This document shows, in pieces, positions 4,362 through 64,000 of a DNA stretch of 64,000 nucleotides (positions are counted from its first letter, which is position 1; the number at the start of each line of letters is the position of its first letter). The notes beneath the pieces are model-generated. The model made no database searches, was not told the origin of the DNA, and was given only the letters and a program-made list of their open reading frames with translations. Location of the stretch: NCBI GenBank assembly GCA_021683455.1, contig GCA_021683455.1_3051.1; one strand, 5' to 3'. The DNA comes from a phage. Both the position numbers and the translations under genes were made by a program.

Positions 4362-5114
4362 ATGGCAAACATTATTCGTTGTAAATTACCAGATGGTGTT
4401 CATCGTTTTAAACCATTTACGGTAGAAGATTATCGAGATTTTTTGTTAGTTCGAAACGATATAGAACATCGGTCACCACAAGAACAAAAAGAAGTAATTG
4501 CTGATTTAATTGCTGATTATTTTGGAGACTATCCAAAGACTTGGCAACCATTTATATTTTTGCAGGTATTTGTAGGTTCAATAGGTAAAACTAAAGTACC
4601 AGTCACATTTGTATGTCCAAAATGTAAAAAAGAAAAGACAATTCCATTTGAAATATATCAAAAAGAATTAAAGGAACCTATTTTTGATGTAGCTAATGTT
4701 AAAATTAAATTAAATTTTCCTTCTGAGTTTTATGAAAATAAAGCAAAGATGATTACTGAAAATATTCATTCTGTTCAAGTAGATGAAATGTGGTATGATT
4801 GGAAGGAAATTAGTGAATCAAGTCAAATAGAACTTGTTGACGCCATCGAGATAGAAACATTAGAAAAAATTCTCGATGCAATGAATCCTATTAATTTAAC
4901 ATTGCACATGTCGTGTTGTGATAAGTACATTAAAAAATACACTGATATAGTAGATGTGTTTAAGCTATTAGTTAATCCAGATGAGATATTTACTTTTTAT
5001 CAAATTAATCACACGCTTGTAAAAAGTAATTATAGCTTAAATTCAATAATGAAAATGATTCCTGCCGAGCGCGGATTCGTATTAAAACTGATTGAGAAGG
5101 ATAAACATCAATGA
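4362..5114 (+). CDS. 51: Baseplate hub assembly protein gp51
   Basis: 250-aa ORF; T4 gp51 length and position. Confidence 0.85.
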
Positions 5115-10920: not shown

Positions 10921-10951
10921 TTTGTGTTCCTCATGTTATGTCAGTAAAACT

Positions 10952-10981
10952 ACTATAACACAATACGAGGGACTTGTAAAC
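10952..10981 (-). promoter_or_regulatory. Early sigma70-type promoter (GTTTAC-N18-TATAGT)
   Basis: Minus-strand GTTTAC 18 nt upstream of TATAGT; same architecture recurs 12 times in the window. Confidence 0.6.
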
Positions 10982-13038: not shown

Positions 13039-13041
13039 GAT

Positions 13042-15135: not shown

Positions 15136-15158
15136 CATATCCTCTCTAGTGTTTATTC

Positions 15159-26209: not shown

Positions 26210-26240
26210 CATAAAGTCCTCATGTTATGTCAGTAAGACT

Positions 26241-26270
26241 ACTATAACACAACATGAGGGACTTGTAAAC
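26241..26270 (-). promoter_or_regulatory. Early promoter (GTTTAC-N18-TATAGT) upstream of alc
   Basis: About 50 bp near-identical to the element at 10925-10981. Confidence 0.6.
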
Positions 26271-35379: not shown

Positions 35380-35610
35380 TTATTGTTCAATCAGTCCCAT
35401 GTAAAATTCTGCGTCTTCAGAATCCATGCCATCACAATATTCATTAGCCATAAAGCGGGTAAGGTCTTCAAGAGGACCTTCAATGACAATAGAAAAATTG
35501 CAATAATTGGGATCATCATGAATACTTGTGATACTAAGTTCAGGATAACGATTACGAATAATCTCTTCAATATATTCAAAATCAACGATGTCAATATCAA
35601 CTTTAGCCAT
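35380..35610 (-). CDS. Hypothetical acidic protein (76 aa)
   Basis: Track ORF to 35736 reads through promoter and terminator; internal ATG at 35610 (MAKVDIDIV..) has SD AAGAGGAA. Confidence 0.55.
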
Positions 35611-35653
35611 ATTATTTTCCTCTTTAATCATCAGCAGTATTGCCGATAGTTGT

Positions 35654-35683
35654 ATAGTACCATAAAGCCTTATGTTTGTAAAC
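35654..35683 (-). promoter_or_regulatory. Early promoter (GTTTAC-N18-TACTAT)
   Basis: Near-identical to 52348-52377, including an upstream A/T-rich tract. Confidence 0.6.
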
Positions 35684-35715
35684 CGTTTTGTGAAAAAAAT
35701 TTTGAAATAAAAAAA

Positions 35716-35734
35716 GGGGACCTCTAGGGTCCCC
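35716..35734. terminator. Terminator hairpin GGGGACC-UCUA-GGGTCCCC downstream of gene 32
   Basis: 7/8-bp GC stem flanked by A-run and T-run. Confidence 0.6.
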
Positions 35735-35756
35735 AATTAATTAGTAATATAATCTA

Positions 35757-36665
35757 TTAAAGGTCATTCAAAAGGTCATCCAGGTCCGTGTCATCAGCAC
35801 TAGATGAACTGCCAGAGCTTGAGCTCATAAAATCATCTTCAGTTTTTGTATTGAAGTCATCAACATTGAATGCATCCAAATCATCAGCAACTTTATCGGC
35901 TTTCTTAGCAGCAGTTGCTGCGGCACCACCCATAGCAGCAGTTCCCATAACTTGACTGAACTTAGTGCTCAGTTCTTCAAACGATTTGAATTTATCTTTA
36001 GAAGTCATTTCAGAAAGGTCAACCATTTGTTCGAACAGTTCTTTCTGGAAAGATTCATCGTCAATGTTTGGAATCGCAGATTGATTCAGGAATTTAGATT
36101 CGTCGTAGTTACTAAATCCAGAAACTTGTTTAACTTTCAGTACAAAGTTAGCACCTTCCCACGGACAAGTTACATCAACCGGAGTTTCACCCATTTCAAC
36201 ATCAACTGCAATCATTGCATTGATTTTATCCCAGATTTTCTTGCCGAAACGGTATTTAAATACTTTACCTTCGTTTTCTGGAGCAGCTGGGTCTTTTACT
36301 ACAAGAATGTTAGCCCAGTAAGAAGTTTTACGTTTAACAAGACCGTACTCTTTATTGTCAGTGTTGTACAAATCATTTTTACTGATGTACTGACATACTG
36401 GACAAGAATCGTAATCACCGTGGGTAGATGAACAGTTTTCAATATACCATTTACCATTTTTCTTGAAACCGTGATTTACAAGAATTGCGAATGGTGCTTG
36501 TTCATCATTTTTAGACGGAAGAAAACGAATTACTGCTTGACCGTTACCCGCATTGTCGAGTTTCAGTTTCCACTCGCCTTTATCTTCAGAAGAAAAACCA
36601 CCTTTATTTCCAGCCAGTTTAGCCATTTGTGCAGCGAGTTCAGCAGTAGATTTACGTTTAAACAT
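35757..36665 (-). CDS. 32: Single-stranded DNA-binding protein gp32
   Basis: 302-aa [40 protein letters not shown].. with acidic C-terminal tail; T4 gp32. Confidence 0.95.
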
Positions 36666-36697
36666 TTTTATTTCCTTTTTAATTTAATTAACAGTTG

Positions 36698-36730
36698 GTG
36701 CTATGACGATGTATGACCTCATAGCTGGTC
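36698..36730 (-). promoter_or_regulatory. Gene 32 translational-operator pseudoknot
   Basis: Minus-strand GACCAGCUAUGAGGUCAUACAUCGUCAUAGCAC: stems GACC/GGUC and AGCUAUGA/UCAUAGCU interleave; followed by an unstructured A/U-rich tract up to the gene 32 ATG. Confidence 0.65.
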
Positions 36731-36748
36731 AGTGAGATAATTATAATC

Positions 36749-36756
36749 TATTTATA
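36749..36756 (-). promoter_or_regulatory. Late promoter TATAAATA upstream of gene 32
   Basis: Exact minus-strand TATAAATA in the 59-32 intergenic region. Confidence 0.5.
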
Positions 36757-36764
36757 ATAAGCAA

Positions 36765-37418
36765 TTAATACTTACAAGATTTCACAGTTTCAATAAAAAC
36801 TTTTTTAGCTTCCTGTGAATCGATATTTAAAATTTTTCTATAAGCCTTTAACTTTATAGAATAATTATTCCAGACTAAATTATCAGTCTGTTCATCATGT
36901 TTATCAATTATATTTAAAAACGAATCAAGCAAGATAAACGTCTCAAACGAAATTATGTTCGACTGAAGCAGTTTAAAAATATAACTTGATTGAACTTTTG
37001 GATTATACTCAAAAATTTCTTTAAAAGCAGAAACTTCAACTTTTTTACTAAAATAATAAATGTTGCGAATATCTTCTTCAAACTTAAATTTAATTTGCTT
37101 TAAGCGTCCGATATATTCACGATAAAACACAAGTGCATCAGCATCAGAGATGTCGCCAATCCAAGCATCTTGGTTAGCTACAAGATTGCTAATAAAAATT
37201 AAAGTCAATTCTTTTAATTTATACTTTTCTGATAGCTTTTGGAAAAAATACTTATCTCTTCGTTTTTGATAAGCGGCATCAGACACCCGCATGCACCAAT
37301 TGTACTTAATAACATCATATTTTCCATTCATATGTTGTTTTATCATTAAGTATAATTTATAAACTGATTTACCATCAATATATCTTTCACCACCAGCAGG
37401 CATGCGGAGTTTAATCAT
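36765..37418 (-). CDS. 59: Helicase loader gp59
   Basis: 217-aa ORF; T4 gp59 length and position. Confidence 0.85.
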   Translation of the reverse strand: MIKLRMPAGGERYIDGKSVYKLYLMIKQHMNGKYDVIKYNWCMRVSDAAYQKRRDKYFFQKLSEKYKLKELTLIFISNLVANQDAWIGDISDADALVFYREYIGRLKQIKFKFEEDIRNIYYFSKKVEVSAFKEIFEYNPKVQSSYIFKLLQSNIISFETFILLDSFLNIIDKHDEQTDNLVWNNYSIKLKAYRKILNIDSQEAKKVFIETVKSCKY

Positions 37419-37753
37419 AGCAGAAAGTCTAACGTATTCGTTTTTTCACATCTAACAACAGAAGGGCGTAAAAGATTTTCGTCAATAGCTTCTGATTGAA
37501 TTTTTTCAATTATACCCGAAGGAATAAATTTAGCAAATTGAGTTTCAGGAATAGAGTTTTCTTCCAAGAATGCTGTCGTAGCTTCAAGATAACTCATTCC
37601 AAACTCTTCTACCATTTTTTCAATAATAAATCCATTTTCTTGACGATCAAGAAGCTTTGCTATTTCATCCTTTTCTTTCTTGATTGAAAGTTCTTTTTCT
37701 GAAAGACCGGTCTCATCGACCGGACGAATATCATTTAGAGAAAACTGTGTCAT
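37415..37753 (-). CDS. 33: Late transcription co-activator gp33
   Basis: MTQFSLNDIRPVDETGLSEKELS.. from ATG 37753 gives 112 aa (track ORF starts 3 codons earlier). Confidence 0.85.
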   Translation of the reverse strand: MTQFSLNDIRPVDETGLSEKELSIKKEKDEIAKLLDRQENGFIIEKMVEEFGMSYLEATTAFLEENSIPETQFAKFIPSGIIEKIQSEAIDENLLRPSVVRCEKTNTLDFLL

Positions 37754-38000
37754 AAAGTTCAACTACCTCTTCAGTTTCAGCTTCAAACACATCACGGTTA
37801 TCTTTATGATATAGAGCTAATAGACGATTAAACATCTTGCCGTCAACACCAAGTTCATCTTTAGCACGAATTCGAATATCTTTAATCAATTCATTATAAC
37901 CGGAAATTTTCAGTTTATGATCAGATGCTTCTTTAATAAATTTAGCCAAGTCTTCGCCATGGATAGCTTCATCAAATTCAACCATTTCTTTTTTAGCCAT
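37731..38000 (-). CDS. dsbA: DsbA double-stranded DNA-binding protein
   Basis: 89-aa ORF; T4 DsbA length and position. Confidence 0.8.
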   Translation of the reverse strand: MAKKEMVEFDEAIHGEDLAKFIKEASDHKLKISGYNELIKDIRIRAKDELGVDGKMFNRLLALYHKDNRDVFEAETEEVVELYDTVFSK

Positions 38001-38008
38001 TATTCACC

Positions 38009-38926
38009 TCAAAATTCATTAATGCTATTAGTTAATTTAGAAAGACCCGCTTTTACAAAATATGAATAAATTTTGCCACGCGGTGGTAATTTATATGAAT
38101 TATAGTAATTCACAATGTTTGAAGCAATATTATCAGGAATATAATCAAAATCAATTAGAACTAAATTTTCTTTATAACGATTATATTCAGATTCTGTGAG
38201 AAGCACCTTAGCTTGCTCACGGTCATTAGCAATAGCTTCAACGATTGAAGTTTTCATTGAAGGGGTTCGTTCACCTTCAACTTTGGTAAACCAAAAGTCA
38301 GATCGTACTTTAACTGAAGCAACGTTATCCTTTTTGTCGCCCTTAAGGATTTTAGTCATACAGTCAATTTCAGCAGAACCGCTTTTAATTTTAACCCATT
38401 TCTTGTGCATCGGTGACCATTGCTTAACATTTGGGTATTTGTGAAGTTGAGTAAAGTCACCATCCGATGAAATGATTAAAATCTTGTGTCCTTCTAAAGA
38501 GAACTTTTTAACAAGAACAGCAATGTGGTCATCTGCTTCATACTTATCGATATCCATAACAATGTATGGCATATAAGCTTTCAATTCATCTATAACTTTG
38601 TGGCTGGATTCAAAATAACCTTCCCAGTCCCAAGTCGATTCTTCTCGTGCTTTTCCACGGTTTTTCTTATAATAATAAGCGAAATCACGACGCCAGTATC
38701 CAGATTTCGCGTTATCAATACACAGTACAATTTTAGTGTATCCAAGAGTTTTTGCTTTTTTGACATTAAACTTAATTGAGTTCAATATCAAATGACGAAC
38801 CATTGATAAATTAATTTTTTCTTTATCTGGGAAGTTTACTAAAGCAGTTGAAAGCGCAATTTGACTAAAGTCAATAAAGCAAATTCCTTCTTTGTAATCT
38901 TCATCCAGCATCATTTCTAAATCCAT
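38009..38926 (-). CDS. rnh: RNase H (5-prime to 3-prime exonuclease / flap endonuclease)
   Basis: MDLEMMLDEDYKEGICFIDFSQIAL.. from ATG 38926 gives 305 aa as in T4 RNase H. Confidence 0.9.
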   Translation of the reverse strand: MDLEMMLDEDYKEGICFIDFSQIALSTALVNFPDKEKINLSMVRHLILNSIKFNVKKAKTLGYTKIVLCIDNAKSGYWRRDFAYYYKKNRGKAREESTWDWEGYFESSHKVIDELKAYMPYIVMDIDKYEADDHIAVLVKKFSLEGHKILIISSDGDFTQLHKYPNVKQWSPMHKKWVKIKSGSAEIDCMTKILKGDKKDNVASVKVRSDFWFTKVEGERTPSMKTSIVEAIANDREQAKVLLTESEYNRYKENLVLIDFDYIPDNIASNIVNYYNSYKLPPRGKIYSYFVKAGLSKLTNSINEF

Positions 38927-38955
38927 ATGAACCTCGTTCAATTAGTGAGATTTCT

Positions 38956-38985
38956 ATTATATACCATCCAAATCTTAAAGTAAAC
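38956..38985 (-). promoter_or_regulatory. Early promoter (GTTTAC-N18-TATAAT) for rnh
   Basis: Same 30-nt architecture, in the rnh-34 intergenic region. Confidence 0.5.
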
Positions 38986-38988
38986 AAG

Positions 38989-38996
38989 TATAAATA
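38989..38996 (+). promoter_or_regulatory. Late promoter TATAAATA for gene 34
   Basis: Exact TATAAATA 35 nt upstream of gp34 ATG, SD GGAG. Confidence 0.6.
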
Positions 38997-39030
38997 CTTA
39001 TTATTGAAAACACAATAGGAGCCCGGGAGA

Positions 39031-42000
39031 ATGGCCGAGATTAAAAGAAAGTTCAGAGCAGAAGACGGTCTGGACGCAGGTGGTGATAAAATAATCAACG
39101 TAGCTTTAGCTGATCGTACCGTAGGAACTGACGGTGTTAACGTTGATTACTTAATTCAAGAAAACACAGTTCAACAATATGATCCAACTCGTGGATACTT
39201 AAAAGATTTTGTAATCATTTATGATAACCGCTTTTGGGCTGCTATAAATGATATTCCAAAACCAGCAGGAGCTTTTAATAGCGTACGCTGGAGAGCATTA
39301 CGTACTGATGCAAACTGGACAACTGTTTCGTCAGGACCTTATCAATTAAAATCAGGCGAATCGATTTCAGTTAACACCGCAGCGGGTAATGACATTACAT
39401 TTACTTTGCCATCTTCTCCAATTGATGGTGATACTATCGTTCTCCAAGATATTGGAGGAAAACCTGGAGTTAACCAGGTTTTAATTACAGCTCCGGTACA
39501 AAGCATTGTAAACTTTAGAGGTCAACAAGTACGCTCAGTACTAATGACTCATCCAAAATCACAGATAGTTTTAATTTTTAGTAATCGTCTGTGGCAAATG
39601 TATGTTGCTGATTATAGCAGAGAAGCGGCAGTTGTAACGCCAGCGAGTCTTTATCAAGCGCAATCAAACGATTTTATCGTGCGTAGATTTACTTCTGCTT
39701 CAGCAATTAATATTAAACTTCCTAGATTTGCTAATCATGGGGATATTATTAATTTTGTTGATTTAGATAAATTAAATCCGTTATATCATACTATCGTTAC
39801 TACATACGATGAAACGACTTCAGTACAAGAAGTTGGAACTCATTCCATTGAAGGCCGTACATCTATTGATGGTTTCTTGATGTTTGATGATAATGAGAAA
39901 TTGTGGAGATTGTTTGACGGGGATAGTAAAGCACGTTTACGCATTATAACGACTAATTCTAATATTCGTCCAAATGAAGAAGTCATGGTATTTGGCGCGA
40001 ATAATGGAACAACCCAAACAATTGAACTTCAGCTTCCAACTGATATTTCTATCGGTGATACTGTTAAAATTTCCATGAATTACATGAGAAAAGGACAAAC
40101 AGTTAAAATCAAAGCTGCCGGTGAAGATAAAATTGCTTCTTCAGTTCAATTGCTGCAATTCCCAAAACGTTCAGAATATCCACCTGAAACTAAATGGGTG
40201 ACTGTTCAAGAATTAGTTTTTAATGGCGAAACCAATTATGTTCCAGTTTTACAGCTTGCTTATATCGAAGATTCCGATGGAAAATATTGGGTTGTACAGC
40301 AAAACGTTCCAACTGTAGAAAGAGTAGACTCTTTAAATAATTCTACTAGAGCAAGATTAGGCGTAATTGCTTTAGCTACACAGGCTCAAGCTAATGCTGA
40401 TTTAGAAAATTCTCCACAAAAAGAATTAGCAATTACTCCAGAAACGTTAGCTAATCGTACTGCTACAGAAACTCGTAGAGGTATTGCAAGAATAGCAACT
40501 ACTGCCCAAGTGAACCAGGATACTACATTCTCTTTTGCTGATGACCTTATCATCACTCCTAAAAAGTTGAATGAAAGAACTGCTACAGAAACTCGTAGGG
40601 GTGTCGCTGAAATTGCTACGCAGCAAGAAACTAATACAGGGACCGATGATACTACAATCATTACTCCTAAAAAGCTTCAAGCTCGCCAAGGTTCTGAATC
40701 ATTATCTGGTATTGTAACTTTTGTATCTACTGCAGGTGCTACTCCGGCTTCTAGCCGTGAATTAAATGGTACAAATGTTTATAATAAAAACACTAATAAT
40801 TTAGTTGTTTCGCCAAAAGCTTTGGACCAGTATAAAGCTACTCCTACTCAACAGGGTGCAGTAATTTTAGCAGTTGAAAGTGAAGTAATTGCTGGTCAAA
40901 GTCAAGAAGGATGGGCAAATGCTGTTGTAACTCCAGAAACGTTACACAAAAAGACATCAACTGATGGAAGAATTGGTTTAATTGAAATTGCTACACAAAG
41001 TGAAGTTAATACAGGAACTGATTATACTCGTGCAGTCACTCCTAAAACTTTAAATGACCGTAGAGCAACTGAAAGTTTAAGTGGTATAGCTGAAATTGCT
41101 ACACAAGTTGAATTCGACGCAGGCGTCGACGATACTCGTATCTCTACACCATTAAAAATTAAAACTAGATTTAATAGTACTGATCGTACTTCTGTTGTTG
41201 CTCTATCTGGATTAGTTGAATCAGGAACTCTCTGGGACCATTATACCCTTAATATTCTTGAAGCAAATGAGACACAACGTGGTACACTTCGTGTGGCTAC
41301 ACAAGTTGAAGCTGCTGCTGGAAAATTAGATAATGTTTTAATAACTCCTAAAAAGCTTTTAGGTACTAAATCTACTGAAGCACAAGAAGGTGTTATTAAA
41401 GTTGCAACACAAACCGAAACTGTTGCTGGAACATCGGCAAATACTGCTGTATCTCCAAAAAATTTAAAATGGATTGTGCAGAGTGAACCTACTTGGGCAG
41501 CTACTACTGCGATAAGAGGTTTTGTTAAAACTTCATCTGGTTCAATTACATTTGTCGGTAATGATACAGTCGGTTCTACCCAAGATTTAGAACTGTATGA
41601 GAAAAATAGCTATGCAGTATCACCATACGAATTAAACCGTGTATTAGCAAATTATTTGCCATTAAAAGCAAAAGCTACAGATAGTAATTTATTGGATGGT
41701 CTAGATTCATCTCAGTTCATTCGTAGGGACATTGCGCAGACGGTTAATGGTTCACTAACCTTAACCCAACAAACGAATCTGAGTGCCCCTCTTGTATCAT
41801 CTAGTACTGCTACGTTCGGTGGATCAGTTTCAGCAAATAGTACATTAACTATTTCTAATACTGGAACAGCAACTCGATTGATTTTTGAGAAAGGACCTCA
41901 AACTGGAACAAACCCAGCCCAAACGATGACTGTTAGAGTGTGGGGAAATCAATTTAGTGGGGAATTAGATACAACACGTTCTACCGTATTTGAAGTTAGT

Positions 42001-42900
42001 GATGAAACATCTAGTCATTTTTATTCTCAGCGCAATAAAGCTGGAAATATAACATTTAATATCAACGGTACAGTAACACCGATAAATGTTAATGCTTCAG
42101 GAACATTGAATGCAAATGGCGTAGCAACATTTGGTAATTCAGTCACTGCAACTGGTGAAATTATTTCTCGAAGCGCAAATGCTTTCCGTGCTATTAACGG
42201 AAATTATGGTTTCATTGTTCGCAATGATGGATCAGTAACGAATTTTATGCTTACTGCATCGGGTGATCAGACTGGTGGATTTAATGGATTACGTCCTTTG
42301 GCTATTAATAATGCATCTGGTCAAGTAACGATTGGTGAAAGCTTAATCATCGCCAAAGGTGCTACTATAAATTCTGGTGGTTTAACTGTTAATTCGAGAA
42401 TTCGTTCTCAAGGTACTAAAACTTCTGATTTATATACCCGTGCGCCAACATCTGATACTGTAGGATTCTGGTCAATTGATATTAATGATTCAGCTACTTA
42501 TAACCAGTTCCCAGGTTATTTTAAAATGGTTGAAAAAACTAATGAAGTGACTGGTCTTCCATATTTAGAACGTGGCGAAGAAGTTAAATCTCCTGGTACA
42601 TTGACTCAGTTTGGTAACACACTTGATTCGCTTTATCAAGATTGGATTACTTATCCAACGACGCCAGAAGCGCGTACCACTCGTTGGACCCGCACATGGC
42701 AGAAAACCAAAAATTCTTGGTCAAGTTTTGTTCAGGTATTTGATGGAGGTAACCCTCCTCAACCGTCTGATATCGGTGCTTTACCATCTGATAATGCTAC
42801 AATGGGTAATCTTACTATTCGTGATTTCTTACGAATTGGTAATGTTCGCATTATTCCTGACCCAGTGAATAAAACTGTTAAATTTGAATGGGTTGAATAA
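39031..42900 (+). CDS. 34: Long tail fiber proximal subunit gp34
   Basis: 1289-aa ORF (T4 gp34 length) with internal fibre repeats. Confidence 0.9.
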   Translation: MAEIKRKFRAEDGLDAGGDKIINVALADRTVGTDGVNVDYLIQENTVQQYDPTRGYLKDFVIIYDNRFWAAINDIPKPAGAFNSVRWRALRTDANWTTVSSGPYQLKSGESISVNTAAGNDITFTLPSSPIDGDTIVLQDIGGKPGVNQVLITAPVQSIVNFRGQQVRSVLMTHPKSQIVLIFSNRLWQMYVADYSREAAVVTPASLYQAQSNDFIVRRFTSASAINIKLPRFANHGDIINFVDLDKLNPLYHTIVTTYDETTSVQEVGTHSIEGRTSIDGFLMFDDNEKLWRLFDGDSKARLRIITTNSNIRPNEEVMVFGANNGTTQTIELQLPTDISIGDTVKISMNYMRKGQTVKIKAAGEDKIASSVQLLQFPKRSEYPPETKWVTVQELVFNGETNYVPVLQLAYIEDSDGKYWVVQQNVPTVERVDSLNNSTRARLGVIALATQAQANADLENSPQKELAITPETLANRTATETRRGIARIATTAQVNQDTTFSFADDLIITPKKLNERTATETRRGVAEIATQQETNTGTDDTTIITPKKLQARQGSESLSGIVTFVSTAGATPASSRELNGTNVYNKNTNNLVVSPKALDQYKATPTQQGAVILAVESEVIAGQSQEGWANAVVTPETLHKKTSTDGRIGLIEIATQSEVNTGTDYTRAVTPKTLNDRRATESLSGIAEIATQVEFDAGVDDTRISTPLKIKTRFNSTDRTSVVALSGLVESGTLWDHYTLNILEANETQRGTLRVATQVEAAAGKLDNVLITPKKLLGTKSTEAQEGVIKVATQTETVAGTSANTAVSPKNLKWIVQSEPTWAATTAIRGFVKTSSGSITFVGNDTVGSTQDLELYEKNSYAVSPYELNRVLANYLPLKAKATDSNLLDGLDSSQFIRRDIAQTVNGSLTLTQQTNLSAPLVSSSTATFGGSVSANSTLTISNTGTATRLIFEKGPQTGTNPAQTMTVRVWGNQFSGELDTTRSTVFEVSDETSSHFYSQRNKAGNITFNINGTVTPINVNASGTLNANGVATFGNSVTATGEIISRSANAFRAINGNYGFIVRNDGSVTNFMLTASGDQTGGFNGLRPLAINNASGQVTIGESLIIAKGATINSGGLTVNSRIRSQGTKTSDLYTRAPTSDTVGFWSIDINDSATYNQFPGYFKMVEKTNEVTGLPYLERGEEVKSPGTLTQFGNTLDSLYQDWITYPTTPEARTTRWTRTWQKTKNSWSSFVQVFDGGNPPQPSDIGALPSDNATMGNLTIRDFLRIGNVRIIPDPVNKTVKFEWVE
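40380..41500 (+). repeat. Degenerate tandem fibre repeats inside gene 34
   Basis: Recurring units such as ITPETLANRTATETRRGIARIATTAQ / ITPKKLNERTATETRRGVAEIATQQE / VTPKTLNDRRATESLSGIAEIATQ, also visible at DNA level. Confidence 0.7.
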
Positions 42901-42908
42901 GAGGTATT

Positions 42909-44024
42909 ATGGAAAAATTTATGGCAGAGTTTGGACAAGGATATGTCCAAACGCCATTTTTATCGGAAAGTAATTCAGTAAGATATAAAATAAGTATAGC
43001 GGGTTCTTGCCCGCTTTCTACCGCAGGACCATACGTTAAATTTCAAGATAATCCTGTAGGAAGTCAAACATTTAGCGCAGGCCTTCATTTAAGAGTTTTT
43101 GACCCTTCCACGGGAGCATTGGTTGATAGTAAGTCATATGTTTTTTCGACTTCAAATGATACTACATCAGCTGCTTTTGTTAGTTTCATGAATTCTTTTT
43201 CAAGCAATAGACTTGTTGCCATATTAACTAGCGGAAAGGTTAATTTTCCTCCTGAAGTAGTATCTTGGTTAAGAACGGCAGGAACATCTGCTTTTCCATC
43301 TGATTCTTTATTGTCAAGATTTGACGTATCATATGCTGCCTTTTACACTTCTTCTAAAAGAGCTATCGCACTAGAGCATGTTAAACTGAGTAACAGAAAA
43401 AGCACAGATGACTATCAAACTATATTAGATGTAGTATTTGATAGTTTAGAAGATGTTGGAGCGACAGGATTTCCTAAAAGAACATATGAAAGCGTTGAGC
43501 AATTTATGTCAGCTGTCGGTGGAACTAATAACGAAATTGCACGTCTACCTACAGCATCTGCAATAAGTAAACTTTCTGACTATAATTTAATTCCTGGAGA
43601 TGTTCTTTATCTTAAAGCACAACTATATGCTGATGCTGATTTATTAGCGTTGGGAACTACTAATATTTCAATTCGTTTTTATAATGCGTCGAATGGATAT
43701 ATTTCCTCTACCCAAGCTGAGTTTACTGGACAAGCTGGGTCATGGGAATTAAAGGAAGATTATGTAGTTATTCCAGAAAATGCAGTAGGATTTACGATAT
43801 ACGCACAGAGAACTGCACAAGCGGGTCAAGGCGGTATGAGAAATTTAAGCTTTTCTGAAGTGTCAAGAAATGGCGGCATTTCAAAACCTGCTGAGTTTGG
43901 CGTCAATGGTATTCGAGTTAATTATATCTGTGAATCTGCTTCACCTCCGGATATAATGGTACTTCCTACGCAAGCATCGTCTAAAACTGGTAAAGTGTTT
44001 GGGCAAGAATTTAGAGAAGTATAA
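42909..44024 (+). CDS. 35: Long tail fiber hinge protein gp35
   Basis: 371-aa ORF; T4 gp35 length and order. Confidence 0.85.
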   Translation: MEKFMAEFGQGYVQTPFLSESNSVRYKISIAGSCPLSTAGPYVKFQDNPVGSQTFSAGLHLRVFDPSTGALVDSKSYVFSTSNDTTSAAFVSFMNSFSSNRLVAILTSGKVNFPPEVVSWLRTAGTSAFPSDSLLSRFDVSYAAFYTSSKRAIALEHVKLSNRKSTDDYQTILDVVFDSLEDVGATGFPKRTYESVEQFMSAVGGTNNEIARLPTASAISKLSDYNLIPGDVLYLKAQLYADADLLALGTTNISIRFYNASNGYISSTQAEFTGQAGSWELKEDYVVIPENAVGFTIYAQRTAQAGQGGMRNLSFSEVSRNGGISKPAEFGVNGIRVNYICESASPPDIMVLPTQASSKTGKVFGQEFREV

Positions 44025-44029
44025 ATTGA

Positions 44030-44047
44030 GGGAGCCTTCGGGTTCCC
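44030..44047. terminator. Stem-loop GGGAGCC-UUCG-GGUUCCC after gene 35
   Basis: GC stem (one G-U pair) with UUCG tetraloop followed by T-run. Confidence 0.5.
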
Positions 44048-44055
44048 TTTTTCTT

Positions 44056-44063
44056 TATAAATA
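44056..44063 (+). promoter_or_regulatory. Late promoter TATAAATA for 36-37-38
   Basis: Exact TATAAATA 24 nt upstream of gp36 ATG. Confidence 0.6.
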
Positions 44064-44086
44064 CTATTAAAATAAAGGGGCATACA

Positions 44087-44743
44087 ATGGCTGATTTAAA
44101 AGTAGGTTCAACAACTGGAGGCTCTGTCATTTGGCATCAAGGAAATTTTCCATTGAATCCAGCCGGTGACGATGTACTCTATAAATCATTTAAAATATAT
44201 TCAGAATATAATAAACCACAAGCAACTGATAACGATTTCGTTTCTAAAGCTAATGGTGGTACATATTTAAATAAAGTAATTTTTAATAAAGGAATGACTG
44301 TTCCTGGTGCTGGGTCAGGTGACAACGGCATTTTTGCCGGTCCTGGTGATAATGCCACATATGATACTACAAATATGGATATTGTTTCATGGTATGGTAT
44401 CGGCTTTAAATCATCACAAGGAGCAGCAGGTAGAACTGTAGTAATTAACACACGAAACGGAGATATTAGCTCAAAGGGTGTAATTGAAGCATCACAAATA
44501 CGCGCAACTTCGTTATCACCAGTAAATAATTATGACCTTACGAGAAAAGATTATGTTGATGGGGCAATAAATATTGTTACAACAAATGCAAACTCTAGAG
44601 TATTACGCTCTGGAGACACTATGACAGGAAATTTAACTGCGCCAAACCTTTTTTCACAGAATCCTGCATCTCAACCCTCGCATGTTCCGCGATTTGACCA
44701 AATCGTAATTAAGGATTCTGTTCAAGATTTCGGCTATTATTAA
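44087..44743 (+). CDS. 36: Long tail fiber distal connector gp36
   Basis: 218-aa ORF; T4 gp36 order and length. Confidence 0.85.
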   Translation: MADLKVGSTTGGSVIWHQGNFPLNPAGDDVLYKSFKIYSEYNKPQATDNDFVSKANGGTYLNKVIFNKGMTVPGAGSGDNGIFAGPGDNATYDTTNMDIVSWYGIGFKSSQGAAGRTVVINTRNGDISSKGVIEASQIRATSLSPVNNYDLTRKDYVDGAINIVTTNANSRVLRSGDTMTGNLTAPNLFSQNPASQPSHVPRFDQIVIKDSVQDFGYY

Positions 44744-44751
44744 GAGGACTT

Positions 44752-48889
<4,138 letters not shown>

Positions 48890-48921
48890 TTTTTGAATAA
48901 ATATCCTTAAAAGGAGGGTCT

Positions 48922-49578
48922 ATGGCAGCACCTAGAATATCATTTTCGCCCTCTGATATTCTATTTGGTGTTCTAGATCGCTTGTTCAAAGATAACGCTA
49001 CCGGGAAAGTTCTTGCTTCCCGGGTAGCTGTCGTAGTTCTTTTGTTTATGATGGCGATTGTTTGGTATAGGGGAGATAGTTTCTTTGAGTACTATAAGCA
49101 ATCAAAGTATGAAACATACAGTGAAATTATTGAAAAGGAAAGAAATGCACGCTTTGAATCTGTCGCCCTGGAACAACTCCAGATAGTTCACATATCATCT
49201 GAGGCAGACTTTAGTGCGGTGTATTCTTTCCGCCCTAAAAACTTAAACTATTTTGTCGATATTATAGCATATGAAGGAAAATTACCTTCAACAATAAGTG
49301 AAAAATCACTTGGAGGATATCCTGTTGATAAAACTATGGATGAATATGCAGTTCATTTAAATGGACGTCATTATTATTCCAACTCAAAATTTGCTTTTTT
49401 ACCAACTAAAAAGCCTACTCCCGAAATAAACTACATGTACAGTTGTCCATATTTTAATTTGGATAATATCTATGCTGGAACGATAACCATGTACTGGTAT
49501 AGAAATGATCATATAAGTAATGACCGCCTTGAATCAATATGTTCTCAGGCGGCCAGAATATTAGGAAGGGCTAAATAA
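48922..49578 (+). CDS. t: Holin t
   Basis: 218-aa ORF MAAPRISFSPSDILFGVLDRLFKDNATGK.. with one TM segment; T4 holin. Confidence 0.9.
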   Translation: MAAPRISFSPSDILFGVLDRLFKDNATGKVLASRVAVVVLLFMMAIVWYRGDSFFEYYKQSKYETYSEIIEKERNARFESVALEQLQIVHISSEADFSAVYSFRPKNLNYFVDIIAYEGKLPSTISEKSLGGYPVDKTMDEYAVHLNGRHYYSNSKFAFLPTKKPTPEINYMYSCPYFNLDNIYAGTITMYWYRNDHISNDRLESICSQAARILGRAK

Positions 49579-49851
49579 TTATTTGTTTGTATACATTTCT
49601 AAATATCTATATACACCCTCAAAACCCTCGTTGAATTCGTCGATGAGGGTTTTCTTATCTTCTTGAGTTAATTCAGAAACAATTTTACGGAATGAATTCT
49701 GATTTAATTTTCTACCTTCGTGTGTTACTCCAATCTCATTCAGAAATGCAATAAAATTAGCACGATTCTCAACAATATCTTCTCTGGAAAATTTAATCAA
49801 AATAGACGCAACAGTAATAATTTCACGAACTGTATCAATATTTTTATTCAT
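49579..49851 (-). CDS. asiA: Anti-sigma70 factor AsiA
   Basis: 90-aa ORF MNKNIDTVREIITVASILIKFSREDIVENRANFIAF..; T4 AsiA. Confidence 0.9.
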   Translation of the reverse strand: MNKNIDTVREIITVASILIKFSREDIVENRANFIAFLNEIGVTHEGRKLNQNSFRKIVSELTQEDKKTLIDEFNEGFEGVYRYLEMYTNK

Positions 49852-49863
49852 TAACTATACCAC

Positions 49864-50016
49864 TCAATTAGTTGACTTTATTATAATATCATCAGACGCT
49901 TGATTTGTAAACTGGTCTGTGTTATTTTCTTCAAAAATTTTTTCTACGAATTCCTTGAACGACTCACGTTCCTGAGCTACATTGTGCTCGATTACCTTTT
50001 CAAGATTATGACTCAT
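49864..50016 (-). CDS. Possible small acidic protein (50 aa) between arn and asiA
   Basis: Hand-translated MSHNLEKVIEHNVAQERESFKEF..; ATGA overlap with arn stop; early promoter embedded at its 3-prime end. Confidence 0.4.
   Translation of the reverse strand: MSHNLEKVIEHNVAQERESFKEFVEKIFEENNTDQFTNQASDDIIIKSTN
49883..49912 (-). promoter_or_regulatory. Early promoter (GTTTAC-N18-TATTAT) for asiA
   Basis: Same 30-nt architecture as the other early promoters. Confidence 0.55.
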
Positions 50017-50291
50017 TCGAAATAATCTTCAATTTCGTAATCATGGACGTAAATCATTATAGTTTTTAATACATCATCAATACTTTTTCCTGGAGCTGGA
50101 ATTACGTAAAAATATCCTGCTTTTGAGAGGTCTTTATAAGTTCCAACCAAGAAATCATTATTCTCGAGATGTAATTCTTCAACTAATTCATTAACAATTG
50201 AGTGGTATAAATTTGGTAGAAACTTATATAGCTTTTCTAGAATATCAATTTTGATTGTGTATTGAACCACAGACTGAGAATCAATAATCAT
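50013..50291 (-). CDS. arn: Arn anti-restriction protein
   Basis: 92-aa acidic ORF MIIDSQSVVQYTIKIDILEKLYKFLPNLYH..; T4 Arn. Confidence 0.85.
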   Translation of the reverse strand: MIIDSQSVVQYTIKIDILEKLYKFLPNLYHSIVNELVEELHLENNDFLVGTYKDLSKAGYFYVIPAPGKSIDDVLKTIMIYVHDYEIEDYFE

Positions 50292-50374
50292 AGACCTTCC
50301 CCTTATGTTTCTGTTTGCGATTAGATTCTTTAAACGCTTTCTTCTTATCCTTATGAACAGAAGCTTTATTAAAA

Positions 50375-50593
50375 TTATGTTTTGCGACTAAATTGTTCAT
50401 AATGCTGAATTACCTCTCTTAAACATTTGCATGTGAATGAAAACTTTTTAGCTACACCACATTCAAATATATGTTCTCTTAAATCACGTGTATCAGTATA
50501 TCCCATCTCAACAATAAAATGCCTTATTAGATTTTTATCTTTATCATTGAGAGAATTAAAATAATCAGATTTTGAATTAATTTCCCTGGCCAA
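50375..50593 (-). CDS. Hypothetical protein (72 aa; arn.x block)
   Basis: Collinear ORF. Confidence 0.5.
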   Translation of the reverse strand: MAREINSKSDYFNSLNDKDKNLIRHFIVEMGYTDTRDLREHIFECGVAKKFSFTCKCLREVIQHYEQFSRKT

Positions 50594-50873
50594 ATTGAAT
50601 CACCTTCAGTTGACGTTTTAATTCTTTTATCATTTCTTCGTTCATCGCAATATAAAGATCGCGTAAAGCAGGTTTTAGCATTCCATTTACCGGAGAACTA
50701 AATGGGCATACATAATCTTTTCCTACAAGCTTTTTGGTAAATTCCATATCACAAAATTTAAATGCCGGCTCATTCGCATAAATTCCCCAATTAGTTGACA
50801 TCATTTTATTGGCATATTCCAGTGCCTGGATTTGATTCATAATTCCATCGATTTGAAACTTTTTAATATTCAT
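50577..50873 (-). CDS. Hypothetical protein (98 aa)
   Basis: Collinear ORF. Confidence 0.55.
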   Translation of the reverse strand: MNIKKFQIDGIMNQIQALEYANKMMSTNWGIYANEPAFKFCDMEFTKKLVGKDYVCPFSSPVNGMLKPALRDLYIAMNEEMIKELKRQLKVIQFGQGN

Positions 50874-51334
50874 TAGTAAAGGTCCTCAGAGTAAAGTTCT
50901 TTTTCACTACCACCGCGTTCAATACGTACTTGTCCAGCGTAAGTTGCAATAATCATTGCTTCTTCACGTGTCCAATAATTACTATATTGGTCAATAAACC
51001 CTTGGTCATCATCACAAACTTGTTGAGTAACTAATTGAGGTTTAACTACATCTAAAACTTCTGCCATATCTTTAGAATAATGACGAGCACCTGGAATAAT
51101 AAGAGTTCGTCCATCTTTTAATTTAAAACGGTTGGCTGCACAGACAATTCGTCGTTGGTACTTTTGGTTTTCATCCCAGTATGCAGTCTGCCAACAGATT
51201 TCAGGAACTTCTTTCAGGATATCTTCTTCTGTACATTTATAACCATGCGCTTTAAATTTTTCAACAAGACTTTCTGGAGTTTCACGAGATAAAGGAACAT
51301 TCAGCATTTTTAAACGATTAATAAATGGGTTCAT
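50873..51334 (-). CDS. Hypothetical protein (153 aa)
   Basis: Collinear ORF. Confidence 0.55.
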
Positions 51335-51660
51335 TTAAACCATCCTTTAATACGTTGCCACAAAGTTTTCTGTTGAGCTTTGTTAACACCAATTGAACGA
51401 ATAACTGGTTGAGATTCCTGGAATTCTTTATAATCAGCAAGGTAAATTTCGTAAGCTGAATCCGTAAAGGAACTTATCGCTGCCATGAAATTATTGCGAA
51501 TACCTATTGGAGCATCTTTACTGTCACGAATAATCATGTATTTACCAGTCTTAATCTTTACAATAGTTCCAAGATAAGCTCCATGGTACCAAATGTCCCA
51601 CCCCTCTTGAGTGGGTTCTGCACAACGACGAAGTTCATTGATAATTTCTAACTTGTTCAT
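51331..51660 (-). CDS. Hypothetical protein (109 aa)
   Basis: Collinear ORF. Confidence 0.55.
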
Positions 51661-51670
51661 TATTTATTCC

Positions 51671-52306
51671 TCACAGTTCAGATGCTACAGTGATTACAGC
51701 TTCAATGTTTTCTGCTGAGCGTTTAATGTCAAGATACACATTACCGTTTTTAGCGATTTTACAAGACATTCCGATATCAGTAAATTTCTGAATATGATGT
51801 TCCATCATTTTGTATCCAAAAATTCGCATATTTCCATTATTGTTAATTTCAAAATTGCGAATTCCGTGAGTGCGTTTTTCTAAAATAGCAAGATAGTTAC
51901 TACGATAAGTTTCAACTTTTTTAAGAACAAATCCATTTTCATCTAAAAGTTTTAACATAAAGTCTTTATCTTCTTCCATATCAGAAGTAATCTCGCGAGC
52001 TTTACGAGTTGCTCGTTTTTTCAGCAGTTCCGGAGCATTTTCCTGTGCGTATAAAGTTGCTGCATTTGAAATAATATCCTGAGCTTCACCAGTAATGATT
52101 AATCCATCACCAGATTTCTCCACCAGGCCTTTTTTAATCAATACCCCAATATTACTATTAACTACTGCATTACCTAAATCTGGATGCACCTCACGAACTT
52201 CTGCAGCTGTAATGAAATCTTTCTTAGCAATAGTAATTAAAATCGCAGCAGTTTTTTCATTCAGAACATCGTTAGAAGCTTTGATGATGTAAGTTACTTT
52301 AGACAT
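51671..52306 (-). CDS. motA: MotA middle-transcription activator
   Basis: 211-aa ORF MSKVTYIIKASNDVLNEKTAAILITIAKKDF..; T4 MotA. Confidence 0.9.
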   Translation of the reverse strand: MSKVTYIIKASNDVLNEKTAAILITIAKKDFITAAEVREVHPDLGNAVVNSNIGVLIKKGLVEKSGDGLIITGEAQDIISNAATLYAQENAPELLKKRATRKAREITSDMEEDKDFMLKLLDENGFVLKKVETYRSNYLAILEKRTHGIRNFEINNNGNMRIFGYKMMEHHIQKFTDIGMSCKIAKNGNVYLDIKRSAENIEAVITVASEL

Positions 52307-52347
52307 TTTCTAATCTCCGTAATTCTGTATCAGTAGTTGATAGTTGT

Positions 52348-52377
52348 ATAGTACCACAGTATGCTTTGGTTGTAAAC
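52348..52377 (-). promoter_or_regulatory. Early promoter (GTTTAC-N18-TACTAT) for motA
   Basis: Same module with upstream A/T tract. Confidence 0.6.
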
Positions 52378-52408
52378 CGTTTTGTGAAAAAAATTTTGAA
52401 ATAAAAAA

Positions 52409-52428
52409 GGGAGAGCCGAGGCTCTCCC
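52409..52428. terminator. Terminator hairpin GGGAGAGCC-GAG-GCUCUCCC
   Basis: 8/9-bp stem flanked by A-run and T-run, directly upstream of the motA early promoter. Confidence 0.6.
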
Positions 52429-52433
52429 TAAAA

Positions 52434-52583
52434 TTACTGCATGACTGTGATAACTGTCATGATAACACGTTGAATTCCGAATGCAAGAAGACCTCCTGCT
52501 ACGGCTGGAACAACACCTAAACCCGCCAGTAAAATGCTACCGGATACTAATGCAGCGCTTGTAATACCTATAAATGGACTCAT
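52434..52583 (-). CDS. Small hydrophobic membrane peptide (49 aa)
   Basis: Hand-translated MSPFIGITSAALVSGSILLAGLGVVPAVAGGLLAFG..; ATGA overlap with gene 52 stop. Confidence 0.45.
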   Translation of the reverse strand: MSPFIGITSAALVSGSILLAGLGVVPAVAGGLLAFGIQRVIMTVITVMQ

Positions 52584-55482: not shown

Positions 55483-55512
55483 ATAGTACCACGGAAGAAC
55501 AGTCTTGTAAAC
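55483..55512 (-). promoter_or_regulatory. Early promoter (GTTTAC-N18-TACTAT)
   Basis: Same module plus conserved leader CCTATCAACTACGGAGGAA. Confidence 0.6.
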
Positions 55513-55697: not shown

Positions 55698-55961
55698 TCA
55701 TAGTTCAATCTCAGCAATTTTCATTTCATTACTATTAATAGCCGCTTTAAGACTATCTGAAAGAATTACATTCCAGTGGTCATTCATATGACCATTAACT
55801 AAGCGTGTAATTTCTTCGGGAGTTGAAAAATAAGGCGTATCAGACTCCCAATGCGATAATCCTAAGCGAGTATAAATCATACCTTCATCATCGCTAGAAT
55901 ATTCAACTGACACAAACTCATCAGTTATTTTATGTTTAGCGTAATGAAATTTAAATTTCAT
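55698..55961 (-). CDS. Hypothetical protein (87 aa)
   Basis: Internal ATG at 55961 (MKFKFHYAKHK..) after SD GGAGGAG; track extension rejected. Confidence 0.5.
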   Translation of the reverse strand: MKFKFHYAKHKITDEFVSVEYSSDDEGMIYTRLGLSHWESDTPYFSTPEEITRLVNGHMNDHWNVILSDSLKAAINSNEMKIAEIEL

Positions 55962-55989
55962 TTTCCGCTCCTCCGTAGTTGATAGTTGT

Positions 55990-56019
55990 ATAGTACCACG
56001 GTCCTTGTGGTATGTAAAC
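55990..56019 (-). promoter_or_regulatory. Early promoter (GTTTAC-N18-TACTAT)
   Basis: Same module. Confidence 0.6.
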
Positions 56020-56035
56020 CGTTTTGTGAAAATTT

Positions 56036-56593
56036 TTAAATGGAAAGATACCATCCGTTGTAGTTGCTTTTTCTTACAACCTTACGAAGGTCTTCTCTGT
56101 CACCGATGAACTTCGGAGTGTACTGGATGACACCTGGATGAATTTCTTTAGTGTTGAATATAATTATACAGTCAGCGACTTGATGATTTAGAATGGGCCC
56201 TAGATTTATTCCAGAACCATATGGATACTCTCCGCTGCATCCCGTTGTTACCGAAATCCAACGCGAGTCAGTTTGATGTGTTTTGACTTCTACACGAAGC
56301 CCGCAATATTTTGGATGCGCTAAAACATCCCATGCATACGTGTACGGATCATCGACATTTTCTTGGCCTTTATTGACATATCCGCTTAGCCAATCTGCCA
56401 CAAAAAACTCTGCGTACACCGCGATACGGCATCTTTCGATAACTTCTGCTTTATCCTGGTTCGGGTTTTGTTTTAAAGAGTATCTTGCTGTATCAGCAAT
56501 TTTGACCTTCATTTCACTAGTCAAGTCACTGTTCGATAGGGTAAATGTCGGAATCTGAAATAGTCTCTGCAAACCCGGATTTGTTTTCTGCAT
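56036..56593 (-). CDS. denB: Endonuclease IV (cytosine-DNA specific)
   Basis: 185-aa ORF; T4 DenB length and position between ndd block and rIIB. Confidence 0.8.
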   Translation of the reverse strand: MQKTNPGLQRLFQIPTFTLSNSDLTSEMKVKIADTARYSLKQNPNQDKAEVIERCRIAVYAEFFVADWLSGYVNKGQENVDDPYTYAWDVLAHPKYCGLRVEVKTHQTDSRWISVTTGCSGEYPYGSGINLGPILNHQVADCIIIFNTKEIHPGVIQYTPKFIGDREDLRKVVRKSNYNGWYLSI

Positions 56594-63921: not shown

Positions 63922-64000
63922 GTTATTTTCTGTATCAGTAGTTGATATTGATATAGTACCATAATCAACTACTGATGTATATAGTTTTATGAAAAAATTT

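Follow-up and report, generated by a model that had tools for sequence, protein, structure and literature searches.

Organization of the two junctions

The DNA analyzed here, a stretch of 64,000 nucleotides referred to as the window, belongs to a Tequatrovirus (T4-like phage) and shows 97–98.5% identity to Tequatrovirus genomes at the two sites considered, A and B. Both sites act on the minus strand and have the same layout, namely a terminator hairpin followed by an early promoter. Site A lies between gene 32 and frd.3, and site B is placed between motA.1 and motA:

35757–36665, minus strand: gene 32 (gp32), ORF of 302 aa; orthologs annotated gp32 in wV7, T4 and RB51
35380–35611, minus strand: frd.3, the gene downstream of site A, with its ATG at 35609–35611
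52434–52583, minus strand: motA.1, the gene upstream of site B, ORF of 49 aa; orthologs annotated motA.1
51671–52306, minus strand: motA (activator of middle transcription), downstream of site B, ORF of 211 aa; orthologs annotated

The MotA protein of the window is 100% identical to proteins in IMG/VR contigs. At site A, the stop codon of gene 32 is followed by the hairpin with its U-tract, the UP element, a GTTTAC -35, a TGn/TACTAT -10 and frd.3. The elements of the two sites, together with a third member of the promoter subfamily, are as follows:

35709–35734, minus strand: intrinsic terminator of gene 32 (hairpin 35716–35734, T7 tract 35709–35715; terminator scan)
35687–35703, minus strand: A/T-rich, UP-element-like segment of the frd.3 promoter, AAAATTTTTTTCACAAA, about -56 to -40
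35654–35683, minus strand: core early promoter of frd.3 (GTTTACA -35 at 35677–35683, TACTAT -10 at 35654–35659; promoter scan)
52403–52428, minus strand: intrinsic terminator of motA.1 (hairpin 52409–52428, T6 tract 52403–52408; terminator scan)
52381–52397, minus strand: UP-element-like segment of the motA promoter, with the same sequence as at site A
52348–52377, minus strand: core early promoter of motA (GTTTACA at 52371–52377, TACTAT at 52348–52353; promoter scan)
55958–56037, minus strand: third promoter of the subfamily (repeat families D1 and D4), just downstream of denB, without a strong terminator hairpin

The hairpin of the gene 32 terminator, GGGGACC-CTAGA-GGTCCCC, begins 22 nt past the stop codon and has a stem of 7 bp (6 GC), a loop of 5 nt and a folding energy of -14.6 kcal/mol; taken alone, it is only modestly more stable than shuffled sequence (z = -1.9 in a 71-nt context). 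The motA.1 hairpin, GGGAGAGCCTCGGCTCTCCC, lies 5 nt past the stop codon and pairs as GGGAGAGC(C)/(G)GCTCTCCC, with a stem of 8–9 bp, a loop of 4 nt and an energy of -21.1 kcal/mol (z = -5.3). RNA folding of both copies, as proposed in a preliminary description of this DNA, thus yielded stable, perfect, GC-rich hairpins. Each site combines a GC-rich stem of at least 5 bp, a short loop, a U-tract and a co-oriented stop codon just upstream. The U-tract directly follows the 3' side of the stem on the minus strand only (T7 at A, T6 at B); on the plus strand, AATTAATT or TAAAATTA comes after the hairpin. The preliminary description had quoted the cassettes on the plus strand; there, an A-run stands before the hairpin, which is not terminator-like, and the functional reading is the reverse complement. 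A function on the plus strand was rejected for want of a T-run and of co-oriented genes, and an assembly artefact was rejected because the same arrangements recur across many independent genomes.

Other records describe these terminators as well. That of site A is annotated as rho-independent in wV7, Lutter, fPS-65 and R5505, and that of site B is annotated in Aplg8 (by three methods), Lutter, fPS-65 and R5505. Five of six T4-like genomes share a conserved terminator past gene 32 (PMC1524935). An Rfam scan of the whole window returned no family above threshold, so no known structured RNA accounts for the hairpins. The T4 ortholog of site A has an identical hairpin, GGGGACCCTAGAGGTCCCC, with a T-run; the window differs from T4 here in homopolymer lengths, at one C/T site in the UP region and at two spacer positions. 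The same T4 segment (hairpin, UP element and -35) forms the inverted repeats flanking tetA(C) in the mini-Tn5-tagged plasmid pIPO2T. The T4 gene 32 terminator reportedly stands at the ends of the Omega interposons, work attributed to Prentki and Krisch in 1984 and to Fellay et al. in 1987, and the copies in pIPO2T presumably belong to an Omega cassette. Their placement would lend indirect support to termination by the T4 ortholog of site A.

Each terminator loop is found in two forms, one being the exact reverse complement of the other: CTAGA/TCTAG for site A, CTCG/CGAG for site B. This flipping resembles hairpin-loop inversion (flip-flop) and is unrelated to the similarity between A and B. 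Hairpin-loop inversion arises by intrastrand template switching at inverted repeats, as in T4 quasipalindrome mutagenesis and in chloroplast hairpins.

Both core promoters have the sequence features of T4-type early promoters, i.e., a -35 and a -10 separated by 17 nt, a TGn and an A/T-rich UP element; in both, the spacer ends in TGG. Within the 64-kb window, the sequence AAAWWTWTTTTNNNAAA, which we take to be the full UP-element consensus, is matched at sites A and B only. Transcription of frd.3 probably starts near 35647. An early promoter is predicted at both orthologous sites in the Lutter and fPS-65 records; PMC6024815 reports no mapping of either the motA or the frd.3 promoter. Altogether, 13 early-promoter-like sites lie on the minus strand of the window, and a strong terminator stands upstream of three of them (19943, 35682 and 52376). 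An independent pattern scan also placed a terminator-like site and a -35/-10 pair with an upstream TG in both stretches singled out in the preliminary description, again on the minus strand. To date, composite elements of an early promoter and a stem-loop terminator have been described as PeSLs, short for promoter-early stem-loop (Arbiol et al. 2010, PMC2839356; Comeau et al. 2014, PMC4122927). Those of the PST/T4 pair have their stem-loop immediately upstream of a promoter with the consensus TTTACW-N17-TAYWAT (PMC2839356, PMC4122927), which the frd.3 promoter fits. Hence, the proposal that a terminator is placed directly upstream of an early promoter is supported at both sites, where sequence anatomy, annotation of orthologs and the literature on PeSLs and early promoters agree.

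Shared promoter sequence and its probable exchange between loci

The 37-mer on which the preliminary description was built occurs exactly twice in the window, at 35678–35714 and 52372–52408, against zero occurrences expected by chance. Read directly, the exact match extends to 39 nt (35676–35714 and 52370–52408), and spans the last part of the U-tract together with the UP element and the -35 region. A second exact block of 18 nt, GATAGTTGTATAGTACCA, covers the -10 and start region (35645–35662 and 52339–52356), and overall the sites share 86% identity over 76 nt (repeat family D4). The homology reaches no further than the U-tract and the CCC closing pairs of the hairpin; upstream of the hairpins, the sequences of A and B are unrelated. 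The promoter downstream of denB has TTTTCACAAAACGGTTTACA and GTGGTACTATACAACTATCAACTAC in common with site B.

Such identity might be due purely to convergent or purifying selection for optimal UP, -35 and -10 elements, with no exchange between the sites. T4 early promoters, which are of the UP/-35/TGn/-10 class, are indeed known to be strongly constrained (Hinton 2010, PMC2988021). Moreover, the shared block fits the complete UP-element consensus, with its A4T7/A5T6 variation falling on degenerate W positions. Yet, about 11 other early promoters of the window have quite different upstream sequences. The spacers argue against selection alone as well. The frd.3 promoter of bov9_1, RB14 and R5505 has exactly the spacer of motA, a non-consensus sequence of 15 nt, and keeps the gene 32 hairpin and the frd.3 leader. 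This motA-type spacer is found at frd.3 in about 38 of 496 records, a count that is approximate, since BLAST aligns the 66-nt junction queries through other spacer types at about 91–93% identity. In SH7, the spacer at the frd.3 site is that of the promoter past denB, apart from one mismatch in 18 positions.

A further point against selection alone is that A and B of one genome can share a variant that is rare or private among 16 paired genomes, as is the case in the window and, with another variant, in T4. In these genomes, the UP/-35 core is identical at A and B in 5 of 16, compared with 1.3 expected under random pairing (P = 0.0005, in a test that ignores phylogeny), and the cores of the other 11 differ mainly in homopolymer lengths prone to sequencing error. 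In an edit-distance version of this test for concerted evolution, the mean was not significantly lower (P = 0.09); the test is therefore taken as supportive, and the claim of conversion rests on the spacer swaps. Megablast with a 241-nt site A query missed site B in the same genomes, owing to the short and A/T-rich shared part, and was not usable for counting pairs. These comparisons leave selection without exchange improbable, and the shared promoter part appears to bear signs of ectopic gene conversion, a mechanism suggested by the swapped spacers.

By a slight preference, we further propose a small network of early promoters, those of frd.3, of motA and of two ORFs in the ndd-denB region, that exchange sequence by ectopic gene conversion, in which the 39-nt and 18-nt blocks would serve as homology arms and frd.3 would be the usual recipient. 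A single ancient event, passed on by ordinary homologous recombination, could, however, account for the motA-type spacer at frd.3 in place of recurrent conversion. If the network exists, the frd.3 promoter has at least four "borrowed" spacer alleles in natural T-even populations, and promoter alleles move between loci within a genome while gene order is unchanged, a mode of regulatory evolution not spelled out in PMC2839356 or PMC4122927.

Conservation and origin of the hairpins

The preliminary description took the different stems beside a shared repeat as pairing-preserving changes between two copies, and thus as a sign of selection on structure. This argument is not supported: the two hairpins cannot be aligned as homologues. 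Their stems differ in length (7 vs 8–9 bp) and their loops in size (5 vs 4 nt), and they follow different genes, gene 32 and motA.1. Nor did a count across T-even orthologs, which had been suggested for compensatory substitutions, provide such a signal: across 17 genomes, neither stem varies at its site, so zero compensatory substitutions can be counted within the genus. Stem disruption without compensation was seen in none of the orthologs examined; in one contig, the entire site A terminator is lost through a 72-nt deletion. IMG/VR scans for the promoter 18-mer and for relatives of gp32 and MotA gave only 4–5 Tequatrovirus contigs, too few for statistics, but proved useful for other genera.

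Between genera, the picture is different. A hairpin is present at 25 of the 25 gene 32 loci compared across T4-like genera, with at least seven different stems, and five of the eight consensus pairs show compensated double changes. At 24 of the 25 loci, a [G/T]TTTAC motif follows within 5–88 nt after the hairpin. Judging from these alignments, selection on structure is visible only in gene 32 terminators compared between T4-like genera.

A common origin of A and B from one duplicated or mobile cassette, hairpin included, with stems that diverged by compensatory substitutions under selection for pairing, would explain why the parts stand in the same order and why the identity reaches 3 nt into the 3' arm (CCC) and hence implies a 5' GGG; PeSL cassettes have also been proposed to move as units. 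Nevertheless, we regard this origin as very improbable. Stem length, loop size and sequence give no alignable register beyond GGG/CCC, and such GGG...CCC closing pairs are generic for terminators of the window (families D6 and D10). No intermediates linking GGGGACC to GGGAGAGCC were seen, with both stems invariant in the 17 genomes, and the sequence upstream of the hairpins is unrelated. Equally hard to sustain is a role of the hairpins mainly as DNA, i.e., as cruciforms or protein sites targeting recombination: according to a speculation of the PeSL authors, a recombination protein may bind GGGG...CCCC stems, each loop has an inverted form in the population, whose origin calls for DNA pairing within one strand, and rearrangements adjoin both sites, but the T-run follows the hairpin on the coding strand only and the hairpin lies just past a stop codon, the conservation of structure and T-run across genera despite sequence change argues against a sequence-specific protein site, and conversion tracts and the insertion at site B end in the promoter, not in the hairpin.

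Proposed function and comparison with known systems

We therefore interpret sites A and B, with a probability of roughly 0.9, as composite terminator/early-promoter junctions of the PeSL kind, in which the hairpins are unrelated and the identity of the promoters reflects constraint and occasional conversion. The sequence anatomy, its conservation, the exchanged haplotypes and the third-party annotation on which this reading builds are direct observations; actual termination and initiation in the window phage, like conversion as the mechanism of exchange, are presumed from them. RNA polymerase coming from gene 32 (site A) or from gene 52/motA.1 (site B) would reach the GC-rich hairpin and U-tract and terminate, and the hairpin probably also stabilizes the mRNA 3' end of the upstream gene. 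Just downstream, host sigma-70 polymerase would restart at an early promoter of great strength, whose A/T-rich UP element is close to consensus, driving frd.3 and the following genes from site A and motA from site B. By termination at the hairpin and a fresh start at the promoter, the downstream unit would be insulated from upstream transcription. The hairpins themselves would be two different, unrelated terminators belonging to the upstream genes, and the high identity of the promoters would stem from functional constraint together with occasional ectopic gene conversion, a non-reciprocal form of recombination, among paralogous early promoters. Crossing over between the direct repeats at A and B would remove 16.7 kb of essential genes, which a mini-circle of the kind ascribed to neighbouring PeSLs would have to carry; thus, only conversion products would be expected to survive.

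The gene 32 terminator, the T4 early promoters and the PeSL combination are already textbook or published knowledge, and related records annotate both sites. The comparison nonetheless offers a caution: differing stems beside a shared repeat do not in themselves point to compensatory evolution, for which the homology of the hairpins has to be established first. The spacer swaps at frd.3, involving motA and other early promoters, and the loop flips are of modest value for the study of phage genome plasticity and likewise for users of T4 promoters and terminators as parts.

With respect to T4 early promoters (PMC2988021; Nolan et al. 2006, PMC1524935), A and B show no difference in kind: the GTTTAC -35, the 17-nt spacing, the TG and the A/T-rich upstream element are shared, and those promoters are likewise placed before known early genes, e.g., motA. 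As in PeSLs, a stop codon, a stem-loop, an A/T-rich region, a sigma-70-type -35/-10, an SD and a start codon follow one another; early promoter and stem-loop form one short intergenic unit at both sites, and dispersed repeat families (D1, D2 and D4) are present in the genome. As for rearrangements, site A has the 72-nt deletion in one contig and spacer replacement in many genomes, and site B contains an inserted additional ORF, together with a promoter of its own, in YUEEL01 and in three IMG/VR contigs; most genomes keep the same order of flanking genes. A and B also differ from PeSLs. PeSLs typically lie in hyperplastic regions with ORFans, whereas A and B flank the conserved gene 32 and motA, and the exchange at A and B would be a conversion of promoter sequence without gene gain or loss. 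In lambdoid morons, a promoter and a terminator likewise bracket small transcription units; however, their signals lack the character of conserved repeats, and no role in recombination is ascribed to them, whereas the promoter at A and B is a conserved repeat.

Predicted terminator and promoter at the two junctions

By its sequence, the window belongs to a T4-like phage (genus Tequatrovirus), with 97–98.5% identity to NiC89, ECO4, wV7, RB51, and others. The two sites compared lie among genes that are on the minus strand throughout.

Features of the two sites and spacers compared in the window
Site A, minus strand: between gene 32 (35757–36665) and frd.3 (ATG at 35611)
Hairpin A, 35716–35734, minus strand: predicted terminator hairpin of gene 32
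Site B, minus strand: between motA.1 (52434–52583) and motA (51671–52306)
Hairpin B, 52409–52428, minus strand: predicted terminator hairpin of motA.1
35676–35714 (A) and 52370–52408 (B): exact 39-nt block
35645–35662 (A) and 52339–52356 (B): exact 18-nt block
52354–52371: motA promoter spacer
55996–56013: spacer of the promoter downstream of denB (56018)
55489–55506: spacer of the 55511 promoter

The preliminary description reported a shared stretch of about 37 nt. This 37-mer indeed occurs exactly twice in the window, against a chance expectation of 0, and by direct reading the match extends to 39 nt. The 18-nt block follows 13–14 nt beyond it, and the spacers between the two blocks are unrelated.

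On the minus strand, both sites read as stop codon, GC hairpin, T6–7, A/T-rich segment, GTTTACA, spacer, TACTAT, leader, Shine-Dalgarno sequence, and ATG, the −35 to −10 spacer being 17 nt long with TGG at its end. An independent pattern scan placed a terminator-like site and −35/−10 boxes with an upstream TG on this strand at both cassettes first described (35654–35734 and 52348–52428). On the plus strand, on which these had been quoted, an A-run precedes the hairpins and no T-run follows them. The A/T-rich segment, AAAATTTTTTTCACAAA, fits the full UP-element consensus, AAAWWTWTTTTNNNAAA, which is matched nowhere else in the 64 kb than at sites A and B. On this reading, the 39-mer runs from the last part of the U-tract through the UP element to and including the −35 region; the 18-mer is the predicted TGn/−10 and start region.

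The earlier proposal of a putative terminator directly upstream of a putative early promoter is correct and is backed by this anatomy, by third-party annotation, and by the literature. A rho-independent terminator is publicly annotated at site A in wV7 and R5505 and at site B in Aplg8 and R5505, and the Lutter and fPS-65 records carry both terminator and early promoter at either site. T4 early promoters are UP/−35/TGn/−10 promoters (PMC2988021), and a terminator downstream of gene 32 is conserved in five of six T4-like genomes (PMC1524935).

Stems and loops of the hairpins

As first noted, each copy ends in a hairpin and the stems differ; both hairpins are perfect and GC-rich, with folding energies of −14.6 (A) and −21.1 kcal/mol (B). 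The argument built on this difference, that pairing had been preserved by compensatory change between the copies, is invalid, and nothing in hairpins A and B indicates one diverged hairpin. Identity between the sites ends at the U-tract and the CCC/GGG closing pairs, the stems measure 7 bp (A) and 8–9 bp (B) with loops of 5 and 4 nt, and the sequences upstream of the hairpins are unrelated. Among 17 Tequatrovirus genomes, each stem is unchanging at its own site, so that the count of compensatory substitutions first proposed for T-even orthologs comes to zero. Beyond changes in the loops, the hairpins differed only by an extra G in RB27 and a terminal G-U pair in one contig.

Putative selection on hairpin structure is visible only at a greater distance than Tequatrovirus. 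When 12 distinct gene 32 terminator versions were aligned, five of eight consensus pairs showed compensated double changes; the alignment fits versions with 5-nt loops imperfectly. A hairpin is present at every one of the 25 gene 32 loci compared across T4-like genera, in at least seven stem versions, and in 24 of these loci a [G/T]TTTAC motif lies 5–88 nt after it.

For each of the two hairpins, a second form exists that is the exact reverse complement of the first (loci L108–L121). At site A, 11 genomes have GGGGACC-CTAGA-GGTCCCC and 6 have GGGGACC-TCTAG-GGTCCCC; the centre of hairpin B is CTCG or CGAG, or CTTG in SH7. The sequences suggest inversion of the loop (flip-flop) where perfect inverted repeats flank it.

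Probable exchange between early promoters

Function accounts for part of the likeness between the two promoters; other early promoters in the window have upstream regions and spacers quite unlike those of A and B. Sites A and B were compared in 16–17 genomes. The motA spacer, AACCAAAGCATACTG, shows no variation, whereas the frd.3 spacer is polymorphic among T-even phages, with several haplotypes. Between a gene 32 hairpin upstream and a frd.3 leader downstream, both of which are kept, the frd.3 promoter of bov9_1, RB14, and R5505 has a spacer identical to that of motA; this junction is present in about 38 of 496 records. The SH7 frd.3 spacer equals that of the denB-downstream promoter with 1/18 mismatches, and the EPIMRB01 spacer matches it exactly. 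The "TCC" frd.3 haplotypes are nearest to the 55511 promoter (3–6/18 mismatches versus a background of 8–10). These frd.3 alleles correspond to spacers that other early promoters of their own genome carry (loci L110, L114, L121; L115).

The UP/−35 core, i.e., the shared upstream element and −35 region, varies among phages in homopolymer lengths and one C/T site. The cores of A and B are identical within 5 of 16 genomes, compared with 1.3 expected under random pairing (P = 0.0005); the test ignores phylogeny, and on edit distance it yields P = 0.09. At both sites the window has a core variant private to it (C, A4, T7), and T4 has one variant (T, A5, T6) at both of its sites. Taken together, the spacer swaps and shared core variants point to putative ectopic gene conversion between paralogous early promoters, in which the conserved blocks would serve as homology. 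According to work cited in PMC2839356, under 50 bp of homology suffices for recombination in T4. If A and B crossed over, 16.7 kb with the tail fibre genes would be lost, which would leave only products without a crossover viable.

Related elements and promoter-early stem-loops

Parts of the T4 version of site A are also found in plasmids. In pIPO2T, a mini-Tn5-tagged plasmid, inverted repeats around tetA(C) (3010–3069 and 5042–5101 of locus L123) consist of the site A ortholog from T4, with its hairpin, UP element, and −35, and reach as far as the HindIII site of the spacer; this arrangement indicates a laboratory interposon cassette. These repeats are presumably Omega interposon ends, for which the T4 gene 32 terminator was the source. 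Three conjugative plasmid records (pIPO2T, NC_007635.1, and NZ_CP017779.1) each contain two copies of a 117-bp segment that matches T4 at 100% and includes the gene 32 end, terminator, UP element, and frd.3 promoter −35; one of the three plasmids comes from Klebsiella pneumoniae in human urine.

Other repeats were seen in the window. A tandem duplication, now diverged, occupies 11229–15138 at a period of about 2.1 kb (e.g., 12842–12999 versus 14936–15093, 72%; 13011–13041 versus 15108–15138, 97%), suggesting paralogous neighbouring genes. Direct repeats of 27–68 nt (65–78% identity, spacings of 108–681 nt) lie in 40432–41355, within the proximal tail fibre gene 34 by position relative to related-phage annotation. 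An Rfam scan of the whole 64 kb gave no family at threshold. The T4 td gene is annotated as two joined pieces; if td is within the window, its group I intron may be absent from this phage.

Among further promoters, the window end truncates another copy of the promoter and leader resembling those of site B, at 63928–64000 (77% identity over 73 nt); the −35 region of this copy appears degenerate. An early-promoter-plus-leader pair at 10928–10981 and 26217–26270 (94% identical, 15.3 kb apart) has a 9-bp dyad, CCTCATGTT...AACATGAGG, across the −10 region and Shine-Dalgarno sequence of each, which could mask the ribosome binding site in read-through transcripts. Minus-strand early promoters at 19550, 22965, 34683, 56018, and 60276 have a short inverted repeat in the spacer or over the −10, e.g., GGTACAGG...CCTGTACC at 19550 and GGTAGAG...CTCTACC at 22965. 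The T4 frd.3 spacer is a perfect palindrome, CATAAAGCTTTATG, around a HindIII site.

Promoter-early stem-loops (PeSLs) are composites of an early promoter and an adjacent stem-loop terminator; in those of the PST/T4 pair, the stem-loop is just upstream of the promoter, with the consensus TTTACW-N17-TAYWAT (PMC2839356, PMC4122927). Sites A and B agree exactly with this pair in both stem-loop position and consensus, and the inverted-repeat promoters of the window resemble the PeSL subclasses with a stem-loop between or overlapping the promoter boxes.

Two rearrangements also fit PeSL recombination at such junctions. At site B, YUEEL01 and three IMG/VR contigs (L095–L097) have an insertion between motA and the promoter on the motA.1 side (1217–1686 of locus L120 in YUEEL01). 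It consists of a 75-codon ORF with a weak hairpin and an early promoter of its own, is bounded by a 23-nt direct repeat, CTATCAAATAAATGAACTGAAAC, and replaces the motA leader. At site A, IMGVR_UViG_2974787500_000001 (L018, ~2385–2410) has a 72-nt deletion to which the final 8 codons of gene 32 are lost together with the hairpin and T-run of the terminator; the gene reads on into the UP region belonging to frd.3, and its C-terminus is altered. The function of a terminator upstream of an early promoter is already known, and the promoter-conversion polymorphism and flipped terminator loops are minor additions to this known biology.
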